Positions 39,683-58,281 of a stretch of DNA of 64,000 nt are shown piece after piece (position 1 is the first letter of the stretch; the number at the start of each line of letters is the position of its first letter). The DNA comes from Oscillospiraceae bacterium (GTDB taxonomy: Bacteria; Bacillota; Clostridia; Oscillospirales; JAVBQB01): NCBI GenBank assembly GCA_031549265.1, contig JAVBQB010000002.1, positions 28,038 to 92,037 of the forward strand, given 5' to 3'. The notes beneath the pieces were generated by a model. It did no database searches, was not told the origin of the DNA, and was given only the letters and a program-made list of their open reading frames with translations. The translations under genes were made by a program, and so were the position numbers.

Positions 39683-39711
39683 ATTATATATGACATTAGC
39701 TAATATTTCAA
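39683..39711 (-). promoter_or_regulatory. Sigma-A-type promoter of nifS-nifU
   Basis: Minus strand: TTGAAA (39711-39706), 17-nt spacer, TATAAT (39688-39683). Confidence 0.6.
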
Positions 39712-39742: not shown

Positions 39743-40189
39743 TCATACGTCACCCCGGTTTTTGATGGCTCCCGTGGCCAGCTCGTCGCACCGGTTATTG
39801 AGCTCATTGTCGGCGTGACCCTTAACCCAGTTGAAGGTCACGTTATGGGTTTTGCACAGCGAGAGCAGCCTGTCCCACAAATCGGGATTGAGCGCGGGCT
39901 CGTTTCCGCTGCGTTTCCAGCCGCGCGATTTCCAGGATTCCGCCCAGCCGCGCGACATGGCGTTGACCACATATTGCGAGTCGCTGTAAAGCTCCACGTC
40001 GCAGGGCTCGCGCAGACACTCCAGCGCCGCTATGCAGGCGAATATCTCCATGCGGTTGTTGGTTGTGTCGGGTTCGAAGCCCGAGAGTTCTTTCCTGTGG
40101 GCTCCAAACAGCAGCACCGCTCCGTATCCGCCCGGGCCGGGATTGCCGGAGCAGGCGCCGTCAGTGTATATCTTTACTTTTTTCCTCAT
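39743..40189 (-). CDS. rnhA: Ribonuclease HI (type 1 RNase H)
   Basis: 148 aa. [31 protein letters not shown] and [15 protein letters not shown], so the DEDD residues are present. Its ATG shares one base with the gyrA TAA stop. Confidence 0.92.
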
Positions 40190-42837
40190 TATTCGGGCTG
40201 TTCGGACTGCTCGGGCTGCCCGGCGTCAGGCTCGGTGGCGCTCGACGGCTCCCCGGAAACTTCGGCATCCGCCTGAGTCTCCTGTCCGGCGCCAGTCTGG
40301 CCGTCCTGGCCGTCCTGGCCGGATTCGGTGTCCTCGTCGTCGCTTTCCACTTTTTCGGTGCGTTCGATGGAGATGATGTGCGAGCCGCTGCCCGGGCGCA
40401 TCAGGATAACGCCCTGGGTATTGCGTCCGTAGACGCTGATCTCGCTGACCGACATGCGGATTACCGTACCGTCGTCGGAAATAATCAGTACGTCGTCGGT
40501 TTCCTCGACCACTTTAACGTCGGCGACCAATCCTGTCTTTTCGGTAACCTTGCAGTTGACCAGACCCTTGCCTCCGCGGCGCTGGACATGGCGCTCGGCA
40601 ATGTCGGCGCCCTCTTCGGCCTCGCCGTCCTCGGCGGAAGCACCGCCGCGCATGTAGTCGTCGATCGGAGTGCGCTTGCCGTAGCCGTTTTCGGTTACCG
40701 TGAGCAGAGTGCCCCCGATCCGCGCCCTGGCCGCGCCGACAACGTAGTCGCCGCCGTTCAGGCGTATGCCGCGCACGCCGCCCGCTTCTCGTCCGGTGGT
40801 TCGAACGTCGTTCTCGTCAAAGCAGATTGCCATTCCCTCGCGGGTTGCGATAATTATCGCCTGCTGGCCGTCGGTCTTGCGCACGGCGATCAGTTCGTCG
40901 CCCTCGTCCAGCGTCATCGCGCGTATGCCCGACTTTCTTACGGAATTAAGGTTGGACAACAGGATGCGCTTGACCGTTCCGCAACGCGTCGCCATAAACA
41001 GGTACTTGCACTGCTCCTCGCTCTCAACCGGAATCATGGCCGTAACCTTTTCGTCCGGCTCAAGCGGCAGCAGGTTAACGATGTTCATTCCCTTGGCTGT
41101 CCGACCCGCCTCGGGTACAAGATATCCCTTCTTTCGGTGAAGCCTGCCCTTGCTGGTAAAGAACAGGATGTAATCATGTGTCGACGCCACGAACAGCGTG
41201 CGGATGAAGTCCTCCTCACGCACCGTCTGCGCCGCGATTCCGCGTCCGCCGCGCCTCTGCGAGCGGTAAACGTCGGCGGGCTGGCGCTTTATATATCCCA
41301 TATTGGTCATGGTATATACGCAGTCCTGCCGCTCTATAAGATCTTCAATATCTATCTCGTCGTCGCTTTCAATTATCTCGGTGCGGCGCTCATCGCCAAA
41401 GCGGGCCTTGATTTCGGCCAGCTCCTGCTTGACAATGCTCATGACAAGCGCGTCAGAGGCCAGAATTTCGTTGAAGTATTTGATCTTGTCCATCAGAGCC
41501 GCGTATTCGTCCTCGATCTTGCTGCGCTCAAGGCCCTGCAACCTTCCCAGCCTCATATCGAGAATGGCCTGGGACTGGATTTCGCTGAGTCCGAAGCGTT
41601 CCATCAGCCGGGGTTTGGCGTTGTCGTAGCTGGAGCGGATGATGCTTATAACCTCGTCAATATTGTCAATCGCGATGCGCAGTCCTTCCAGGATATGCGC
41701 CCGGTCCTGCGCGCGCTTAAGATCATATCTGGTGCGGCGGACGATGATATCCCTCTGGAAGCTGACAAAATTATCGATAATCTCGCGCAGTGACAGCGTT
41801 TTCGGCTGTCCGTCCACCAGCGCGAGCATGTTGATTGCGAACGTGGTCTGCATCGAGGTGGATGAATACAGCTTGTTCAGCACAACCTGGGCGTTGGCGT
41901 CCCGCTTCAGCTCGATGACGATCTTCATGCCGTTGCGTCCGGATTCGTCGCGCAGCGCGGAAATGCCCTCCAGGCTCTTGTCCTTGACCAGATCTGCGAT
42001 GCTCTCGACCAGCCTGGCCTTGTTGACCATGTACGGCAGCTCTGTCACAACGATGCGGGACTTGGAGCCGTCCTCCTCGATCTCGGCGCGCGCGCGGACT
42101 TTGACCTTGCCGCGCCCGGTGGCATAGGCCGCACGGATACCCACCCGGCCGTAAATGATGCCGGATGTGGGGAAGTCGGGGCCCTTGATGTGCTCCATCA
42201 TATCGTCGAGGTCGGCTTCAGGGTTATCGATAACGCAGATGACGGCGTCGATCGTCTCCCTCATGTTGTGCGGCGGGATATTGGTCGCCATACCGACCGC
42301 GATTCCGGCGGAACCGTTAACCAGCAGGTTGGGAAAGCGCGCCGGCAGAACCGTCGGCTCCTCGTCGCTGTTGTCGAAGTTCGGAATAAAATCGACGGTT
42401 TCCTTTTCGATCTCGGTAAGCAGCTCCATCGCGACCTTGGCCATGCGGGCCTCGGTATAACGGTAAGCGGCCGGGGGGTCTCCGTCCACCGAGCCGAAGT
42501 TTCCGTGACCGTCGACAAGCATGTAGCGCAGCGAAAAGTCCTGCGCCATGCGCACAAGCGAATCGTAAACCGCGGCGTCTCCGTGCGGATGGTATCGGCC
42601 CAGCACGGCGCCGACGGTCGTCGCCGACTTACGGAAAGCCCGGTCGGGCGTGAGGTTGTCCTCGTACATCGTGTAGAGGATACGGCGGTGCACCGGCTTG
42701 AGCCCATCACGCACATCCGGCAGCGCGCGCCCGACAATGACCGACATGGAGTAGGCGATATACGACTTCTTCATCTCGCGCTCAAGGTCGACGTTTATTA
42801 TCTTTTGGTTTTCAAACGCTATGCTATCATTTGCCAT
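40189..42837 (-). CDS. gyrA: DNA gyrase subunit A
   Basis: 882 aa. [11 protein letters not shown], active-site [10 protein letters not shown], beta-pinwheel C-terminal domain, and an acidic Q/E/D-rich tail. Confidence 0.97.
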
Positions 42838-42872
42838 AAATTACCTCATAATCGATAGGGTTTTTCACTTAA

Positions 42873-43337
42873 TCAGCTGTACCACGAAAAATTTTTCGCC
42901 CACATTCGGCTCGGCTGCCCTGTAATCCTCTCAACAGAGCGCGCCAGTAATTCGTCAGGGTCGTCGCCATCATACGGCGGCATATTTTTATGATAATCCG
43001 ATACGCAGGCTGCCAGCTCGGCGGCTAGTATATCGACTTTTGCTTTTTTGATAACCGATAAAATAAGAACCACAGAGCTAATAACCAGTGCCGGCGGAGA
43101 GCCAAATAAAATTAGGACAACGGGCGGGATGAAAAACATAAATCCAATAGAAACTCTGCCGTCAGGCGTGCAAAGACCTACGATGAGCATAAGAGTTATA
43201 ATACCGAAAACAAAAACGCAGCTAAACGCTATTAAGCGTCTGCCTTCGAGTTTGTCAAGCTTTATGTTGACCTTGTCAACCTCTTTCAGTGTTTCATCCA
43301 ATAATTTGCTCGATTTTTTGTCACTTTCATCCAACAA
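42873..43337 (-). CDS. Small membrane protein, paralogue 2 of a tandem pair between gyrB and gyrA (unknown family)
   Basis: 154 aa, TTG start after GGGAGTG. Hydrophobic helices LIAFSCVFVFGIITLMLIVGL and IGFMFFIPPVVLILF...VISSVVLILSVI. The C-terminal motif PPYDGDDPDELLARSVERITG is shared with the upstream ORF. Confidence 0.7.
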   Translation of the reverse strand: MLDESDKKSSKLLDETLKEVDKVNIKLDKLEGRRLIAFSCVFVFGIITLMLIVGLCTPDGRVSIGFMFFIPPVVLILFGSPPALVISSVVLILSVIKKAKVDILAAELAACVSDYHKNMPPYDGDDPDELLARSVERITGQPSRMWAKNFSWYS

Positions 43338-43376
43338 TTATCACTCCCGCTTCCAGAAATGAAAACATCAAAGCGC

Positions 43377-43829
43377 TTACTTGCCGGCCGACCAGGTATC
43401 CCGTTTGCGCCCGGTAATCGTCTCAATCGCGGAGGCCAGCCGTTCCTCGGCGTCATTGCCGTCATAAGGCGGCTCGCCGTTTTTGAACCTTGCGACGGCG
43501 ACGTTGACTTGGTGGCTGATTTTCTCCACCTGCGACTTCTTGCGTATACACACAAAAATGTTGAAAACTGCGAGCAGCATCGGCAGCACAAAAAGTATGA
43601 CAACAAAAAGCATGGACGGATCAACCGAGATAAAATACAAATACGGCCATCCGGCGCTGAAAAAGAGGAATCCCGCGGCAATCAGCCAGACAAATGAAGT
43701 CTTGAAGCGTTTATTCCAGCTCTCGCCGTACTGGTTGTTCGTCTCAACGAACTTGAGCGTATTCGAAAGCAGATCCTCAGAACGCAATTCTTCACCTCTT
43801 TTTCTGACTGAATAAGCCGTCAGTATCAA
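43377..43829 (-). CDS. Small membrane protein, paralogue 1 of a tandem pair between gyrB and gyrA (unknown family)
   Basis: 150 aa from TTG 43829. An alternative TTG at 43787 follows AGAGGTG. Helices FVWLIAAGFLFFSAGWPYLYFI and MLFVVILFVLPMLLAVFNIFVCI, and the C-terminal motif PPYDGNDAEERLASAIETITG. Confidence 0.7.
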   Translation of the reverse strand: MILTAYSVRKRGEELRSEDLLSNTLKFVETNNQYGESWNKRFKTSFVWLIAAGFLFFSAGWPYLYFISVDPSMLFVVILFVLPMLLAVFNIFVCIRKKSQVEKISHQVNVAVARFKNGEPPYDGNDAEERLASAIETITGRKRDTWSAGK

Positions 43830-43858
43830 TTAATGACTTAGACCATATATCGCGCGGC

Positions 43859-43888
43859 CTGCCGATGGCTGATTCTATTAATCGGCAG
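43859..43888 (-). other. Stem-loop downstream of gyrB (no U-tract)
   Basis: 8-bp stem CTGCCGAT / ATCGGCAG with a 14-nt loop, in the 93-nt gap before the first small membrane ORF. Confidence 0.4.
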
Positions 43889-43922
43889 TTAGTCTTAATT
43901 ACGCGTCCAACCTAAAAAACTA

Positions 43923-45857
<1,935 letters not shown>

Positions 45858-45893: not shown

Positions 45894-46187
45894 TTATTCT
45901 TCGGTCTGACCGGCTTTAATAAGCCGTCTGGTGTTAATTTTTCGCGAGCACCGTTTTGCCAGCGTATTGGTCGCGATAACAGTGACGTACACGCGGCTGT
46001 TCCCGCGCTCTCCCGCGACAACGAATGATTTTGGCAGCTCCTGGCCGACGTTGACCACTTTTCCGCCGCGCTGGGCGGATTCAAGATATTTCCGCGTTAT
46101 AACCGACTGGGTTGTGTTGTCCAGATCAAAAACCCCGATTATGGACTTGTCTCCGACTACAACATCGCTTCCAAGATGAATATACAA
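45894..46187 (-). CDS. remB: DUF370 / RemB (YaaB)-like protein
   Basis: A TTG start at 46187, 5 nt after GGAGG, gives MYIHLGSDVVVGDKSIIGVFDL, matching the B. subtilis RemB N-terminus (MYIHLG...). It holds the conserved recF-remB-gyrB position. Confidence 0.8.
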   Translation of the reverse strand: MYIHLGSDVVVGDKSIIGVFDLDNTTQSVITRKYLESAQRGGKVVNVGQELPKSFVVAGERGNSRVYVTVIATNTLAKRCSRKINTRRLIKAGQTEE

Positions 46188-46213
46188 GCCTGCCTCCAAA
46201 AAATATCAATATT

Positions 46214-47317
46214 TCACTCGTCCACGATCCGGCCGTTTTCAACGTAAATGTTTTTTTGGCTGCCGCAGTCGATGTCGCGCTCGCAGCTGGTGATAATGAT
46301 CTGCCCCCCGCCTCCGCTGCTGAGCAGATATTCCCTGCGGTGCGCGTCGAGCTCAGACAGAACGTCGTCCAGCAGCAGGATCGGATATTCGCCGGTGTCA
46401 TTGTAATTGACGTTACGTTCTCCGATTTTCAGGGAAAGCGCCGCCGTTCTGATCTGCCCCTGCGATCCAAACGTTTTGGCCGGCATGTCGCATAGCTTTA
46501 TCTCAATGTCGTCCTTGTGAGGGCCGACCAGACATTTCCCGGATGCAAGCTCGCCGTCCATGTGGTTCTCTACCGACGTTTCGAGCTGTTTTGCGATTTC
46601 GGCGGCGGACGCGCAGGTATCGGTTACCTCACGGTCGGTTACATAAGCCAGCGCGAGCTGCTCCCTGCCGCAGGATATCGCGTCATGAACCGACATCGCC
46701 TCGCGCTCAAGCGTCTCAATGTAGGACGCGCGGTAGCGGATAACGTGTGCCCCGATCTCGCACAGCCGCTGGTTGAATACGTCCAGCGTTTCCGGAACCC
46801 GGCCGTACTTCAGCCGCTCCTGGAGCAGCGCGCGTTTGTGCTCAAAAATCCGGCGGTATTCGGCGAGAATCAGCGCGTATTTCGGCCTAAGCTGGATGAC
46901 GGCATTGTCGAGAAACCTCCGCCTGTCCAGTGATACGCTTTTGACAAGATATAAATCTTCCGGAGAAAACAGCACCGACCGCAGGATTCCGACAGCAAAC
47001 GATGCGTCCCGCTCACGCTTTCCTCCGACCAGGATCTCACGCCGCCGCCCGCGTTCCAGCCTCGCTTCAAGATGCCGCACGAGGCCGGCCGAATCAACAT
47101 CGGCGGATACGGAAAACCGGTCCTCACTAAAATTGATAAGGTCGCTGTCACGTCCGGTGCGGAACGACCTGAACGTCGCCAGATAATTTACCGCCTCGAG
47201 AAGGCTGGTTTTGCCCTGCGCGTTGTCGCCCATGACCACGTTGACACCCGGGCAGAACTCGACCTCGGCGGAGGTGTAGTTGCGGAATCCGGAAAGCGAC
47301 AGTTTTGGAATAAACAT
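46214..47317 (-). CDS. recF: DNA replication and repair protein RecF
   Basis: 367 aa, Walker A GDNAQGKTSLLEA, and LLLDDVLSELD near the C-terminus. Confidence 0.95.
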   Translation of the reverse strand: MFIPKLSLSGFRNYTSAEVEFCPGVNVVMGDNAQGKTSLLEAVNYLATFRSFRTGRDSDLINFSEDRFSVSADVDSAGLVRHLEARLERGRRREILVGGKRERDASFAVGILRSVLFSPEDLYLVKSVSLDRRRFLDNAVIQLRPKYALILAEYRRIFEHKRALLQERLKYGRVPETLDVFNQRLCEIGAHVIRYRASYIETLEREAMSVHDAISCGREQLALAYVTDREVTDTCASAAEIAKQLETSVENHMDGELASGKCLVGPHKDDIEIKLCDMPAKTFGSQGQIRTAALSLKIGERNVNYNDTGEYPILLLDDVLSELDAHRREYLLSSGGGGQIIITSCERDIDCGSQKNIYVENGRIVDE

Positions 47318-47326
47318 TTGGGCAGA

Positions 47327-47560
47327 TCAGCAACCGATCACATTGACAGAGACGTTGCGGTCGCTCAGGCTGACGTAGTCTCCCGGCCAGATTTTCTTGC
47401 CGCGCTTCATGCATTTTTCGCCGTTAACCGCGACCTCTCCGTCAAGAATAATGCACTTTGCCTCGCCCCCGGTCGAGCATACGCCCGAATATTTCAGCAG
47501 CGCGTCGAGCTGGATGTACTCAGTTTCGATAGCGCAATCAATAGTCATTTGTTTAGACAT
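47327..47560 (-). CDS. yaaA: S4-domain RNA-binding protein YaaA/RlbA-like
   Basis: 77 aa. IQLDALLKYSGVCSTGGEAKCIILDGEVAVNGEKCMKRGKKI. It sits between dnaN and recF, as in B. subtilis. Confidence 0.85.
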   Translation of the reverse strand: MSKQMTIDCAIETEYIQLDALLKYSGVCSTGGEAKCIILDGEVAVNGEKCMKRGKKIWPGDYVSLSDRNVSVNVIGC

Positions 47561-47576
47561 GGATATTTTCCCCTTA

Positions 47577-48698
47577 TCACTCGTTTTTTAGTCTGACCGG
47601 CAGCACCAGCAGTATAAAATCATCGCCTTCAACCGGTCTGATAACACAGGGTGACACAGAGCTGGACAGTTCCATCTTTACCTCGTCTACGCCGGCTGCC
47701 CGGAGCGAGTCGAGCAGATACTTGCCGTTGAACCCGACCTCCACCCGGTCGCCGCCACCCGACATTGCCACCTCATCCTGGGCGCTGCCAAGCGCGGTAT
47801 TGCAAAAAAGACGCACGCTCTTTCCCTCAAACACACAGCGAATCGGCGTTTTCAGCTTTTCGGATATGAGGAGAGACAGGCGTTCGATACAATCGATCAT
47901 CTCGCGCCGGTCCACCGTGACGGTCATCACGCATGACTTGGGCAATACGTTGCGGTAGTCCATGAAATCGCCGCTGAGCAGCCGCGACACCACAGTAGTC
48001 GCGCCGATGGAAAACAGGATGTGCTTACTGCCAACAGAGACTGTAACCTCGTCGTCACAGTCGCCGATGATTTTGTCAATCTCACTCAGTGCTGTGCCCG
48101 GAACGATAAAACGGGTATTGCCCTCGGTTTCACTGCGTACCGTTTCATGCCGGATAGCCATCCGGACTCCGTCCAGCGCGACGACGCTCAGTTTTTCGCC
48201 CGTGACGTCAAAGAGCGCGCCGTTATAGAGCTTCTGGTCGTCGCGGGAGGAGATCGCGTGGCTTACCTGGTCGATGATTGCCTTGAGCGTGCTTTGTTTA
48301 ATAAATATCTGCCCGGCATTATCGATATTGTCCTCGCTGACCGAGGGAAATTCCGGATAATCGGACGCGGGCATTCCGATAATATTAAATTCCGTCATGC
48401 CGCCGGTGAGTTTGACCGAATTTTTATCGGTGGACTCAAACGTAATAAGACAATCGGGCATTTTTCGGACGATATCGGCAAGCAGCTTAGCGCTGACGAC
48501 GATCTCGCCCGGCTGCCGTGCGTCGACTTCTATGTTCGTCCGTATACCGGTTTCGAGATTGTAGCCGGTGACAGAGAGTGTATTATCAAGGGTAAGCAGC
48601 AGCCCCTCAAGCGCCGGAATCGTTGTTTTGTTTGAAACCGCGTGAGCGGCTTTGAGAAGCGCATTTTGAAAAGTACCCTTTTCACACACAAACAGCAT
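47577..48698 (-). CDS. dnaN: DNA polymerase III beta sliding clamp
   Basis: Start MLFVCEKGTFQNALLKAAHAVSNKTTIPALEGLLL at 48698 after GGAGGA. 373 aa. Confidence 0.93.
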   Translation of the reverse strand: MLFVCEKGTFQNALLKAAHAVSNKTTIPALEGLLLTLDNTLSVTGYNLETGIRTNIEVDARQPGEIVVSAKLLADIVRKMPDCLITFESTDKNSVKLTGGMTEFNIIGMPASDYPEFPSVSEDNIDNAGQIFIKQSTLKAIIDQVSHAISSRDDQKLYNGALFDVTGEKLSVVALDGVRMAIRHETVRSETEGNTRFIVPGTALSEIDKIIGDCDDEVTVSVGSKHILFSIGATTVVSRLLSGDFMDYRNVLPKSCVMTVTVDRREMIDCIERLSLLISEKLKTPIRCVFEGKSVRLFCNTALGSAQDEVAMSGGGDRVEVGFNGKYLLDSLRAAGVDEVKMELSSSVSPCVIRPVEGDDFILLVLPVRLKNE

Positions 48699-48944
48699 AA
48701 TGTTCCTCCGATAAAATAACATAATAAAGAATTATAGAGATTAAGATGATAGAATTAGTAGAATAGATGTGAAAACTGATGAAAACTCAGGAATACGCTG
48801 GAGCGCTAATTCTTCACAAAATAAAAAAATGTCAGAAAACAGATTAAAAAAATGGTTAAAACTTAAATGGCGGATTTTTGCACATCGTCTCCGCGCGGAA
48901 ATGCACAAAAATGTTTAAAACCTGTCGAAAGGGGTAAAGCAGTG
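48699..48944. other. oriC: Candidate oriC: AT-rich dnaA-dnaN spacer (possible unwinding region plus DnaA boxes)
   Basis: A 246-bp non-coding gap that is very AT-rich at about 48715-48870 in a GC-rich window. It contains four DnaA-box-like 9-mers and is flanked by the canonical origin gene set. Confidence 0.6.
48768..48907. promoter_or_regulatory. Cluster of four DnaA-box-like 9-mers (relaxed consensus TTWTNCACA)
   Basis: TTTTGCACA at 48876-48884 fits exactly. TTCTTCACA at 48810-48818 has 1 mismatch. GTTTTCACA, on the complement of 48768-48776, has 1 mismatch. AAATGCACA at 48899-48907 has 2 mismatches. I found no perfect TTATCCACA. Confidence 0.45.
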
Positions 48945-54736: not shown

Positions 54737-55405
54737 TCACCTTCGAAGTTGTTTTTTTATAGTTTGATATATGTCGGCAGGCGACGGTTCACCCTCGGTC
54801 GCCGGGGTTTCCGGTAAATACTGTTCAAGAGACTCACCCTCAAACCGGTCGATGACCGCGCGCGCGGCGGTTCTCTGCTTTGCCGCCGTCAGGCTTTGAA
54901 GTTCAACAAGCAGCGACATAGCCATATTGGATTTTGCGAGTGTTTCCTGCTTTGCTTTCTGTTCATAAAGCTGAGTTGAAACTGATTTAATCTCGTCGGC
55001 CAGTTTTTTATTTGATTCCTGCTCGGCAAGTAAGTCTGATTTTATAGCAGTGATTTCGCCTGTAAGCTCTTTAATATCGTTTACCAGTTCGTTATTTTCA
55101 TCCCATAATTTTTCGGTCGCGCTTTTGGCGCTGAGAGAAAATTCGTGCTTCAGAGTTTTTAATTGAGCCTCGCTGTTGCGCGACTGAATAAAATAAGATA
55201 GCAATATGAGAAGGAATGCCAAAATAAACAAAATTAGGGTATAAATAAACAAAAAACGACGGGACTTTTTGCCCTTGTTTGCTTCAGGCACAAGAATATT
55301 ATCGGAGTCTTCAGTCTCGCCGGTGTTCGGAAGCAATGAGTTCGGGTCTGTTGAAACACCGTCGTTGCTGTCGGCAGAAGGAGATTTGTCGCGATCATTG
55401 TCCAT
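54737..55405 (-). CDS. Hypothetical bitopic membrane protein with a long coiled coil
   Basis: 222 aa. An acidic, Ser/Asp-rich N-terminus, one TM helix ([23 protein letters not shown]), then about 130 aa of heptad-like sequence (KTLKHEF...[33 protein letters not shown]). Its ATG lies 11 nt inside the parB 3' end. Confidence 0.7.
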
Positions 55406-56285
55406 CTCGGTCGTTACCTCCCGCAGAAGATATGCCGCTCAGCCCGGAGAGGAGGGAGGTGAGAAAGTCAAAATCATCGGGCCCGTAGAACTCGAGCTCG
55501 AATCGTCCTTTACTGCGGCCGGATACAATACGAACTCTCCGTCCGAGTGTGGACGACAGATTGCGCTCCACATCTTCAATATTAGAAACAGACTGCTCGG
55601 GAGAGGACGGATCGCCCGTTATTTCCTGGCACATTTTTTTAACAAGTTTTTCGGTTTGTCGAACGGAAAGCTGCGCCGCGATGATTTTCTCGGCCACCGC
55701 AATCTGATCGTCGGGGGAGGCGAGCTGCAAGAGCGCCCGGGCGTGTCCGCTTGTAAGCCGGCCGTCCTGAACGGCCTCGATAACAGGAGCTGGGAGCTGC
55801 AATAACCGGAGCGCATTTGCGACCACCGGACGGGACTTGCCGACGCGCGCCGCTGTGTCCTCCTGGGTCAATCCGTAATCCTGAATGAGTGACTTGAAAC
55901 CCTCGGCTTCCTCAATCGGATTAAGATCTTCGCGTTGAAGGTTTTCAATCAGAGCAAGCTCCATCGCGTGCAGATCGTCGGCTTCAACTACAAAAGCGGG
56001 AACCTCGCTGAGGCCGGCAAGTTTAGCGGCGCGCCAGCGACGTTCGCCCGCGATTATCTGATATTTACCATCGGGCAGCAGGCGGACGGCAATTGGCTGC
56101 AATAGACCGTGCTGCCGGATGCTGTCGGACAGGTCGTCGAGCGCCTGAGGGTCGAATATCTTTCGCGGCTGGGATGCGTTCGGGATTATTTCGTGCAATT
56201 TTAGCGTGACGCTGCCCTGGCTTGCTGACGTCGCATTTTCGCCGAATAGGGCGTCAAGGCCTTTGCCCAAACCTTTTATTGACAT
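55395..56285 (-). CDS. parB: Chromosome partitioning protein ParB/Spo0J
   Basis: 296 aa. MSIKGLGKGLDALFG, PRKIFDPQALDDLSDSIRQHGLLQPI, GERRWRAAKLAG, and an HTH (GLTQEDTAARVGKSRPVVANALRLL). Confidence 0.92.
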   Translation of the reverse strand: MSIKGLGKGLDALFGENATSASQGSVTLKLHEIIPNASQPRKIFDPQALDDLSDSIRQHGLLQPIAVRLLPDGKYQIIAGERRWRAAKLAGLSEVPAFVVEADDLHAMELALIENLQREDLNPIEEAEGFKSLIQDYGLTQEDTAARVGKSRPVVANALRLLQLPAPVIEAVQDGRLTSGHARALLQLASPDDQIAVAEKIIAAQLSVRQTEKLVKKMCQEITGDPSSPEQSVSNIEDVERNLSSTLGRRVRIVSGRSKGRFELEFYGPDDFDFLTSLLSGLSGISSAGGNDRDGQ

Positions 56286-56339: not shown

Positions 56340-57104
56340 TCATACAGCTTTGCTCTGCCGCGCGATAATTTCGCCCGCAAGCTCAAGATAGCTGTCGCTG
56401 CCGCGCGACATGCGGTCATATGCGATCACAGGCAGTCCGTGACTGGGAGCCTCCGAAAGGCGGACGTTGCGCGGGACAACTGCGCTGAAAATCTTGCCTG
56501 GGAAAAAGCGCTTGACCTCACCCGCGACTTGAAGAGAGAGATTCGTGCGCGAGTCAAACATGGTTAGCAGCACGCCCTCTAGCTCAAGCGAGGGATTAAG
56601 CGATTTTTTGACCAGCCGGACTGTATACATCAGATCCGAAAGTCCCTCCAGCGCATAGTATTCGCACTGCACAGGAACAAGCAGCGTATCCGCCGAGCAG
56701 AGCGCGTTCAGAGTAAGAAGTCCGAGTGAGGGGGGGCAGTCGATGATTATATAGTCATATCTGTCGCGCAAAGCCGACAGCTTGTCCTTCATTAAATATT
56801 CGCGTCCCGGCGTCGCGACAAGTTCAATCTCCGCGCCGGACAGCGTCTTATTAGAGGGCAGAACATCACCGAATTTCGTGGAGACTATTGTCTCGTCGAC
56901 GTCCGCGTCATTGATTAACAGGTCATACACGTTAGGGGAGACAGACTTGTCCACGCCGAGGCCGGACGTCGTATTGCCCTGCGGATCGAGATCGCAGACC
57001 AGAACTTTGCAGCCCTTGGAATGAAGAGAGGCTGTCAAATTGACACAGGTAGTGGTCTTGCCGACGCCGCCCTTTTGGTTAACTACTGCGATTATTTTAG
57101 ACAT
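56340..57104 (-). CDS. parA: Chromosome partitioning ATPase ParA/Soj
   Basis: 254 aa, deviant Walker A NQKGGVGKTTT. Confidence 0.95.
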   Translation of the reverse strand: MSKIIAVVNQKGGVGKTTTCVNLTASLHSKGCKVLVCDLDPQGNTTSGLGVDKSVSPNVYDLLINDADVDETIVSTKFGDVLPSNKTLSGAEIELVATPGREYLMKDKLSALRDRYDYIIIDCPPSLGLLTLNALCSADTLLVPVQCEYYALEGLSDLMYTVRLVKKSLNPSLELEGVLLTMFDSRTNLSLQVAGEVKRFFPGKIFSAVVPRNVRLSEAPSHGLPVIAYDRMSRGSDSYLELAGEIIARQSKAV

Positions 57105-57255: not shown

Positions 57256-58158
57256 TCAGGCGTTTTTGGGGATATGTATAGTCAGAACAATGTCGCTTTC
57301 GCCCACAACCTTGTCACATCGGGCGTTAAACCCAGAGGATTTCATCACGTCAATGGCATGATTTATTGTGTTAAGAAACAACCGGACATCCTTGACAACA
57401 AACATAGTCTTCTGACTTCTCAAATTGCTTTTGTGCGACTTGCCAGTCGAGGGCAAAATAGAAGCGGCGGCAAGCTCAACGGAAACCTGCTCCGGCTCAG
57501 GCTCGGGTTCGATTGGAAAATAAGTAGGACAGAGCAGCTTGTCAATATATTCGTCAGACTGTTGGACGTTCATCGAAAAATGTACGATATGCTGAGCTGC
57601 TTGAACACGCTGATTTTCGTCGGTTATACGCAGGAGTGCGCGAGCGTGCCGTTCTGTGAGGCCTGACTTGCGAATAAAATCAATAAGTTCAGGCGGATGA
57701 CGCAGCAGTCGAAGCTTATTCGCGACAGACGACTGCGACTTACCGACTCTTTTGGATGCCTCCTCCTGGGAGAGTCCAAAAACTTTAATGAGCCTCTGCA
57801 AACCCTCGGCTTCCTCAAAAAAATCAAGATCATGTCTTTGAAGATTTTCGACAAGCGCAATAAGCGAAGACTGTTGCTCGTCAACTTCCAGGACAATGCA
57901 CGGCACGTCGGAGAGACCGGCGAGCTTCGCGGCGCGCAGGCGGCGTTCGCCCGCCACCAGCTCGAATCCTCCGCGGCGGCGCCGTACGGTCAAAGGCTGC
58001 AATACGCCAAATTGACAGATGCTTTCAGAGAGTTCCTGTAACCGGGCTTGGTCAAAAATTCGGCGCGGCTGAAACGGATTGGGGACGATAGCGCAGACTT
58101 TTATGTATGTGACTTTTCCCGATTCAAACAAGTCATTTTTCTTTCTAAAGTTCATCAT
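57256..58158 (-). CDS. noc: Noc-like ParB-family nucleoid occlusion protein
   Basis: Start MMNFRKK at 58158 after AGGAGGTG. GERRLRAAKLAG. HTH (GLSQEEASKRVGKSQSSVANKLRLL). The C-terminus KDVRLFLNTINHAIDVMKSSG...IVLTIHIPK parallels the B. subtilis Noc C-terminus as I recall it (RDTRIAMNTIRQSLSMVEDSG...IQLTIRIPK). Confidence 0.75.
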   Translation of the reverse strand: MMNFRKKNDLFESGKVTYIKVCAIVPNPFQPRRIFDQARLQELSESICQFGVLQPLTVRRRRGGFELVAGERRLRAAKLAGLSDVPCIVLEVDEQQSSLIALVENLQRHDLDFFEEAEGLQRLIKVFGLSQEEASKRVGKSQSSVANKLRLLRHPPELIDFIRKSGLTERHARALLRITDENQRVQAAQHIVHFSMNVQQSDEYIDKLLCPTYFPIEPEPEPEQVSVELAAASILPSTGKSHKSNLRSQKTMFVVKDVRLFLNTINHAIDVMKSSGFNARCDKVVGESDIVLTIHIPKNA

Positions 58159-58281
58159 TGTCCACCTCCTAGAGCCTATACTAGCATAAGGCGAGATAGA
58201 AAAATGGCGGATTATGACGACTAATTCCATTATTTGTTAATTATTATTTAAACATACTGGGAAATGAAATAATTATCCGAA

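Follow-up and report, generated by a model that had tools for sequence, protein, structure and literature searches.

What are two small genes for predicted membrane proteins doing between the genes of the two gyrase subunits, and do they have anything to do with gyrase? The question is raised by a stretch of 64,000 nucleotides (nt) of an Oscillospiraceae bacterium (contig JAVBQB010000002.1; hereafter the window), in which all genes of the origin-region run lie on the minus strand, in the order dnaA-dnaN-yaaA-recF-remB-gyrB-ORF1-ORF2-gyrA-rnhA, a run typical of Firmicute origin regions. The initial annotation of the window had placed two open reading frames (ORFs) between gyrB and gyrA, at 43377-43829 (150 amino acids, aa) and 42873-43337 (154 aa), and had considered them either a membrane-linked accessory of gyrase or a selfish insert; both ORFs are present, on the minus strand. 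Our analysis favors, with even confidence for and against, a third answer: the two genes encode real, lineage-specific, membrane-anchored proteins, whose working part is a cytoplasmic C-terminal module and which ride as passengers in a gyrB-gyrA junction that tolerates cargo.

Both ORFs are annotated as genes in public assemblies and, what is more, a Logan contig from SRR23967709, which is an independent assembly, matches the window identically over 42526-43979. The first TTG of ORF1, at 43829, from which the product would have 150 aa, is not accompanied by a Shine-Dalgarno site. The likelier start is the TTG at 43787, which lies 5 nt after GAGGTG (ribosome-binding site AGAGGTGA at 43792-43799), and the resulting product of 136 aa (P0002) is the version called in the public assemblies. 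ORF2 starts at TTG 43337 (or 43334), with its ribosome-binding site GGGAGTGA at 43341-43348. The intergenic gaps of 93, 39 and 35 nt reported initially are correct for the starts used there, while the start at 43787 widens the first of them, between gyrB and ORF1, to 135 nt.

The proposal that the two proteins are paralogues is borne out by formal alignment, both by BLASTP (E=1e-15, 29% identity over 145 columns) and by the Smith-Waterman method (z=20.6, with none of 2000 shuffles reaching the score). In addition, the proteins were split and each part was scored against 2000 shuffles of its own. Namely, the C-terminal soluble parts of about 55 residues score z=20 (0 of 2000 shuffles reach the score) and the N-terminal helices z=4 (8 of 2000), while the membrane segments score z=0.24 (790 of 2000). 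The likeness therefore resides in the soluble ends and not in the membrane segments, which means that it is no artefact of hydrophobic composition, and it is the soluble ends that are constrained in both proteins. The soluble C-terminal domains comprise residues 82-136 of ORF1 and 97-154 of ORF2. The common C-terminal module consists of a PPYDGxD loop, a helix with the pattern ExLAxxxExITG and then a Trp, and a motif of 21 residues within it is retained in both copies. In a codon alignment of the two genes, the proportion of synonymous differences (pS) is 0.75, i.e. saturated, as compared with 0.49 for nonsynonymous differences (pN), and different codons are used at 23 of the 42 residues that are identical between the copies. 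With pS saturated and pN lower, the duplication is likely old and both copies appear to have been retained as proteins. By these signatures, ORF1 and ORF2 look like old, selected, real coding genes.

As to their architecture, hydropathy reveals two hydrophobic stretches in each protein, separated by a loop of 8-12 residues that is nearly free of charge. Lys and Arg residues number 3 and 5 before the first transmembrane (TM) helix and 4 and 3 after the second, as opposed to 0 and 1 in the loops, and by the positive-inside rule this clustering places both termini in the cytoplasm. Consequently, in agreement with the two small membrane proteins of the initial annotation, both products are predicted to be helical hairpins with two TM helices, an N-in/C-in orientation and a cytoplasmic C-terminal module. 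The AlphaFold2 models of ORF1 (helices 3-50, 57-102 and 113-125) and ORF2 (helices 3-55, 70-117 and 127-139), both of low confidence, share one three-helix layout, in which one long helix spans the N-terminus and TM1, a short turn leads to a second, made up of TM2 and a cytoplasmic extension, and the PPYDGxD loop precedes a short third helix. A Foldseek comparison of these models with the PDB returned generic long helical hairpins only, all at E>0.8, and was therefore uninformative.

Does the pair belong to any recognizable family? None had been recognized initially, and our searches agree. Namely, scans of ORF1 and ORF2 against Pfam at E<=10 gave sub-threshold noise only, those against NCBIfam (E<=1), PADLOC and PHROGs gave nothing significant (the sub-threshold matches across the four include Tetraspanin, MASE6 and ispZ), and a profile search of the PDB gave no match at E<=10. 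In a word-indexed search of 5.8 billion clustered proteins each ORF retrieved itself alone, while an exhaustive HMMER search of 1.84 billion representatives (approximately 15 billion proteins) with a two-sequence profile recovered ORF1 and ORF2 only. Nor did pattern scans, with tblastn confirmation, yield any relative in GTDB genomes, JGI metagenomes or IMG/VR, and ORF2 has no tblastn match at E<=1 among phage and plasmid records. At a database size such as this, a distant relative with just the motif of approximately 25 residues in common would fall short of significance. The pair is, by these searches, an undescribed protein family with no detectable relatives in public databases. The host lineage, gut-type Clostridia of the Oscillospiraceae, is itself poorly sampled: the closest GyrA among the 5.8 billion clustered proteins is 75% identical, and the best RecF among 185,579 GTDB species representatives, from Oscillospiraceae metagenome-assembled genomes, is 45% identical, the source genome not being among these representatives. 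It is this sparse sampling to which we ascribe the invisibility of the family among public proteins.

The junction between gyrB and gyrA was compared in the 11 distinct closest relatives by GyrA. In seven of these (GyrA identity 70-75%), the two genes are separated by 10-199 nt with no ORF between them, and in 74 Clostridium-type loci the gaps amount to 8-23 nt, with two exceptions, of 43 and 110 nt. In other words, the pair is an insertion relative to other genomes, as had been supposed. GyrB has an intact C-terminus, which aligns with the GyrB ends of relatives L083 and L088, and it shares 58-63% identity with Clostridium GyrB over its last 250 aa. In the four remaining relatives (L084, L087, L091 and L094), gyrA is immediately preceded by a single gene for a YcxB-like protein (PF14317) with two TM helices; except in L091, a gene for an SLH-domain protein of 555-630 aa, which in L084 and L087 carries RCC1 repeats, comes before the YcxB-like gene. 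This cargo occupies L084:3601-5896, L087:1346-3649, L094:2302-4865 and L091:882-1433. A rough neighbor-joining tree of GyrA, without bootstrap, groups these four relatives in one clade and puts the window beside the insert-free L083 and L082, and from this placement the YcxB-like cargo is an insertion independent of the pair, and apparently a stable one. On the simplest history, the ancestral junction would have been empty and would have gained cargo twice, independently. Around the insert itself, target-site duplications and terminal inverted repeats were sought, and short repeats at chance level were all that was seen; in the relatives' loci, no nucleotide similarity to the insert remains. 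A metagenome scan with the YcxB-like alignment produced one short, uninformative contig, and in the literature on YcxB we found no account of its function. Two further observations concern the same set of loci. In the closest relative, the spacer L083:434-632 is unusually long and G+C-rich, contains several GC-rich inverted repeats and bears no likeness to the pair. In L084, the remB-like gene and gyrB are separated by two ORFs of 246 and 79 aa without Pfam match (L084:525-1526), so that the origin operon harbors lineage-specific genes at another junction as well.

The pair is probably co-transcribed with gyrBA-rnhA, as had been suggested initially, in view of the short gaps (135, 39 and 35 nt), a ribosome-binding site for each gene and the want of any convincing terminator or strong promoter. 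In particular, a consensus scan of the coding strand found no site resembling an intrinsic terminator in the gyrB-ORF1 or ORF2-gyrA spacer. In this region, the scan made a single call on the minus strand, between ORF1 and ORF2 (43362-43341; tail TAATTGTTGG); we discounted it because its stem contains just 3 G-C pairs, its T tail is poor and it overlaps the ribosome-binding site and start of ORF2. Promoter-like matches around the pair are weak (9 of 12 positions at best). A perfect 8-bp hairpin, CTGCCGAT/ATCGGCAG with a 14-nt loop (43859-43888, minus strand), is located 35 nt past the gyrB stop and has no U-tract; a structured RNA or attenuator was sought in the gyrB-ORF1 spacer, and its fold is no more stable than that of shuffled sequences (z=-0.11), while an Rfam scan of the window gave no match. 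Downstream, in line with the proposed continuation of the operon into rnhA, this gene lies on the same strand and begins 1 nt before gyrA ends, in overlap with the gyrA stop; RNase H is found 3' of gyrA in relatives L082, L083, L084, L087, L088, L090 and L091 as well. Between rnhA and nifS (39683-39711, minus strand) lies TTGAAA-17-TATAAT, which at 11 of 12 positions is the strongest promoter-like match in the region; it suggests that the gyrase-rnhA unit stops short of nifS and that nifSU would have a promoter of its own.

Low G+C had been offered as a hint of late insertion, and this part of the argument stands only halfway. The dip is real (0.41-0.52 over 42800-43999, compared with 0.55-0.63 in the flanks), and the G+C content at third codon positions (GC3) of ORF2, 0.47, is the second lowest among the 53 ORFs of the window (mean 0.67, standard deviation 0.08). 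That of ORF1, on the other hand, at 0.64-0.67, is normal for the window. The lowest value, 0.46, belongs to an ORF of 222 aa between parB and serS (54737-55405, minus strand), whose best Pfam match, UTP20_C, is sub-threshold (23.6 bits versus 27) and which may be another lineage-specific gene of the origin region.

How would such a pair work? We picture each product as beginning with a cytoplasmic, amphipathic N-terminal helix that would continue as TM1; a very short loop on the outside would connect TM1 to TM2, from which a cytoplasmic helix and the C-terminal module would follow. The membrane hairpin would serve as an anchor only, since the two copies have not conserved its sequence, while the C-terminal domain would be the working surface and bind some cytoplasmic partner. 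We infer that the long antiparallel helices probably bring the two paralogues together as a hetero-oligomer. Expression would most likely occur by read-through within the gyrB-to-rnhA unit, each gene having its own Shine-Dalgarno site, in which case the level of the pair would track that of gyrase. Finally, in this clade the junction would readily accept incoming genes, and since it is permissive for cargo, the pair is most likely a passenger whose function is independent of gyrase.

That said, several points weigh against this picture. The GC3 values of the two copies (0.65 and 0.47) disagree, which simple joint acquisition does not explain, and the pair is found in one genome only, which precludes a measure of selection within the lineage. 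The topology comes from hydropathy and the positive-inside rule only, with low mean values of the predicted local distance difference test in the models (67 for ORF1 and 56 for ORF2). The terminator-like site between the two ORFs was listed by the scan and, though discounted, may be genuine; a weak promoter-like match, TTTTCA-17-GATAAT (9 of 12), lies 5' of ORF2, and the 135-nt gyrB-ORF1 spacer could conceal an unrecognized promoter. Moreover, passenger status is argued by analogy, from unrelated cargo in other lineages, and a gyrase-related role here is compatible with it. One may even read the two-TM protein directly upstream of gyrA in the sister clade as a hint of functional linkage.

Could the pair, then, be a membrane-anchored accessory of gyrase or the nucleoid, whose C-terminal domains bind GyrA, GyrB or origin-proximal DNA, so that gyrase would be tethered or modulated at the membrane and the location within gyrBA would ensure matched expression? 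The placement between both subunit genes, across short gaps that contain no convincing terminator, speaks for it, as do the predicted cytoplasmic exposure of the conserved part and the independent presence, in the sister clade, of a two-TM protein with a cytoplasmic domain at the same spot. However, with no homologues a co-occurrence statistic with gyrase is impossible, neither protein matches GyrI-like, YacG, pentapeptide-repeat (MfpA/Qnr) or other domains (Pfam at E<=10, NCBIfam at E<=1), and the gyrases of the seven insert-free relatives evidently need no such partner. What is more, the sister-clade cargo often includes the cell-surface SLH-domain protein, which points to the envelope rather than to DNA topology. 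We found no positive evidence for the accessory role, and the unrelated cargo at the junction, both in the sister clade and in Caldalkalibacillus thermarum TA2.A1, where a 4.7-kb block separates gyrB from gyrA (PMC7561548), favors a permissive site; we deem such a role improbable.

The second proposal of the initial annotation fares no better. If the pair were a selfish or conflict module (holin-like, abortive-infection, an immunity pair or an addiction cassette) kept in place by its essential operon, one would understand why the genes are small, orphan, tandem paralogues with the two-TM, N-in/C-in layout of class II holins and why ORF2 has an atypical GC3, and one could argue that deletion at this location would be risky. 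On the other side, PADLOC and PHROGs gave no significant match, phage records, plasmids and viral contigs contained nothing similar, and the insert is flanked by neither direct nor inverted repeats beyond chance level and accompanied by no integrase, transposase, other recombinase or endolysin. Unlike a toxin and its antitoxin, the two products are homologues, and the saturated synonymous sites indicate an old duplication. Taken together, this makes a selfish insert quite improbable.

We give the same low weight to the idea that the ORFs are evolutionary leftovers, one or both of them (ORF2 especially) being non-functional, or else young genes born in the spacer and carried neutrally by read-through. 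Their restriction to a single genome, the absence of homologues and the atypical codon composition of ORF2 would fit, as would the fact that the site is already enlarged in the closest relative, with its 199-nt spacer. However, both frames are intact and equipped with ribosome-binding sites, pN is well under the saturated pS, the 21-residue motif persists in both copies, and at the nucleotide level the insert resembles none of the relatives' loci. Finally, two-TM proteins with predicted cytoplasmic C-terminal domains came to occupy the junction at least twice, independently; the idea of convergent recruitment, by which they would be membrane anchors for gyrase or the origin-proximal chromosome and the PPYDGxD-helix domain would be a new gyrase- or nucleoid-binding module, strikes us as very improbable.

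If the pair is indeed a passenger, three things would follow. An essential and normally invariant junction, that between gyrB and gyrA, can take up lineage-specific genes; a family that is old and under selection can escape some 15 billion public proteins through sparse sampling of its host lineage; and the supercoiling-sensitive gyrase operon can drive genes for membrane proteins. Should the C-terminal domain bind gyrase or DNA after all, the pair would become the first case of a gyrase partner that is anchored in the membrane and encoded inside the gyrase operon, and a new handle on gyrase positioning in Firmicutes.

The coordinates of the pair and its neighbors, together with the junctions of the relatives, are collected in Table 1. 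Two other features of the window deserve mention. GyrA has 882 aa as compared with 827-863 aa in the closest relatives, the extra length being an acidic C-terminal tail rich in Gln, Glu, Asp and Gly (residues 830-882 approximately; 40189-40350, minus strand). Beside gidB, two ParB-family paralogues flank parA (55395-56285, 56340-57104 and 57256-58230, minus strand), the upstream one being probably Noc-like.

Table 1. Features of the origin-region run in the window and gyrB-gyrA junctions of the closest relatives by GyrA identity.
Feature	Position	Strand	Remarks
dnaA	48945-50246	-	origin-region run
dnaN	47577-48722	-	origin-region run
yaaA (S4-like)	47327-47560	-	origin-region run
recF	46214-47317	-	origin-region run
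remB-like	45894-46199	-	origin-region run
gyrB	43923-45854	-	643 aa, C-terminus intact; ORF list; neighbor upstream of the pair
gyrB-ORF1 spacer	43788-43922	-	135 nt, A+T-rich; sequence
ORF1	43377-43787	-	136 aa; ORF list, ribosome-binding site, public assembly calls
ORF1 C-terminal motif	43410-43472	-	PPYDGNDAEERLASAIETITG, residues 106-126; alignment; predicted cytoplasmic
ORF2	42873-43337	-	154 aa; ORF list, ribosome-binding site
ORF2 C-terminal motif	42918-42980	-	PPYDGDDPDELLARSVERITG, residues 120-140; alignment; predicted cytoplasmic
gyrA	40189-42837	-	882 aa; ribosome-binding site GAGGT; starts 35 nt past the ORF2 stop
rnhA (RNase H)	39743-40189	-	148 aa; same-strand run ends here
nifS, nifU			downstream of rnhA
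L083 junction			GyrA 75%; 199-nt spacer, no ORF
L082 junction			GyrA 72%; 85-nt gap; dnaA-to-nifU order otherwise identical to the window
L088 junction			GyrA 71%; 10-nt gap
L093 junction			GyrA 71%; 20-nt gap
L085/L086 junction			GyrA 71%; 54-nt gap
L089 junction			GyrA 71%; 56-nt gap
L090 junction			GyrA 70%; 48-nt gap
L084, L087 junctions			GyrA 71%; SLH-domain protein (RCC1 repeats) and YcxB-like protein
L094 junction			GyrA 69%; SLH-domain protein and YcxB-like protein
L091 junction			GyrA 70%; YcxB-like protein alone

How does the pair compare with known systems? Small lineage-specific membrane proteins and insertions that split gyrB from gyrA are both known kinds, and no new kind of system is shown here. 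The known modulators of gyrase, such as GyrI/SbmC, YacG, MfpA/Qnr, CcdB and ParE, are soluble proteins with recognized domains, whereas the products of the pair are predicted membrane proteins, and the proposed link to gyrase is the only feature in common; to our knowledge, none of these modulators is encoded between gyrB and gyrA. The gyrase-poisoning modules CcdAB and ParDE, moreover, consist of two non-homologous partners with recognizable toxin and antitoxin domains, while the products of the pair are paralogues and match nothing in Pfam, NCBIfam or PADLOC.

Class II holins are small proteins with two TM helices, cytoplasmic termini and a charged C-terminal tail, and they occasionally occur as tandem paralogues such as holin and antiholin. 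By hydropathy and positive-inside tallies, the predicted layout of the pair is compatible with this description, a layout that is not specific to holins. Unlike holins, however, it matches no holin family of PHROGs or Pfam, it has gyrB and gyrA for neighbors instead of endolysin or phage genes, and its conservation lies in the C-terminal motif rather than in the TM helices.

A closer parallel in terms of location comes from C. thermarum TA2.A1, where lineage-specific genes likewise split gyrB from gyrA in a Firmicute origin region (PMC7561548). There, the cargo is annotated (magnesium and molybdate import and the regulator cysL) and much larger, in contrast to the two orphan membrane proteins described here.

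The nearest likeness overall is that with the YcxB-like proteins of the sister clade, the 183-aa member of which scores 30.3 bits against PF14317 (gathering score 23.3 bits). We considered whether the pair might be diverged YcxB-like proteins and rejected this, given that neither product matches PF14317 at E<=10 and that hhalign against the YcxB-like proteins of the junction gives a probability of 0.2% (E=0.32). The YcxB-like gene is single-copy, as opposed to the tandem pair here, its C-terminal domain has about 95 aa instead of about 55, and the GyrA tree puts its insertion on another branch, pointing to an independent origin. Nevertheless, with 177-183 aa, the YcxB-like proteins are of similar size and share with the pair the junction, the strand and the position directly upstream of gyrA, as well as a predicted plan of a cytoplasmic N-terminus, two TM helices and a cytoplasmic C-terminal domain.

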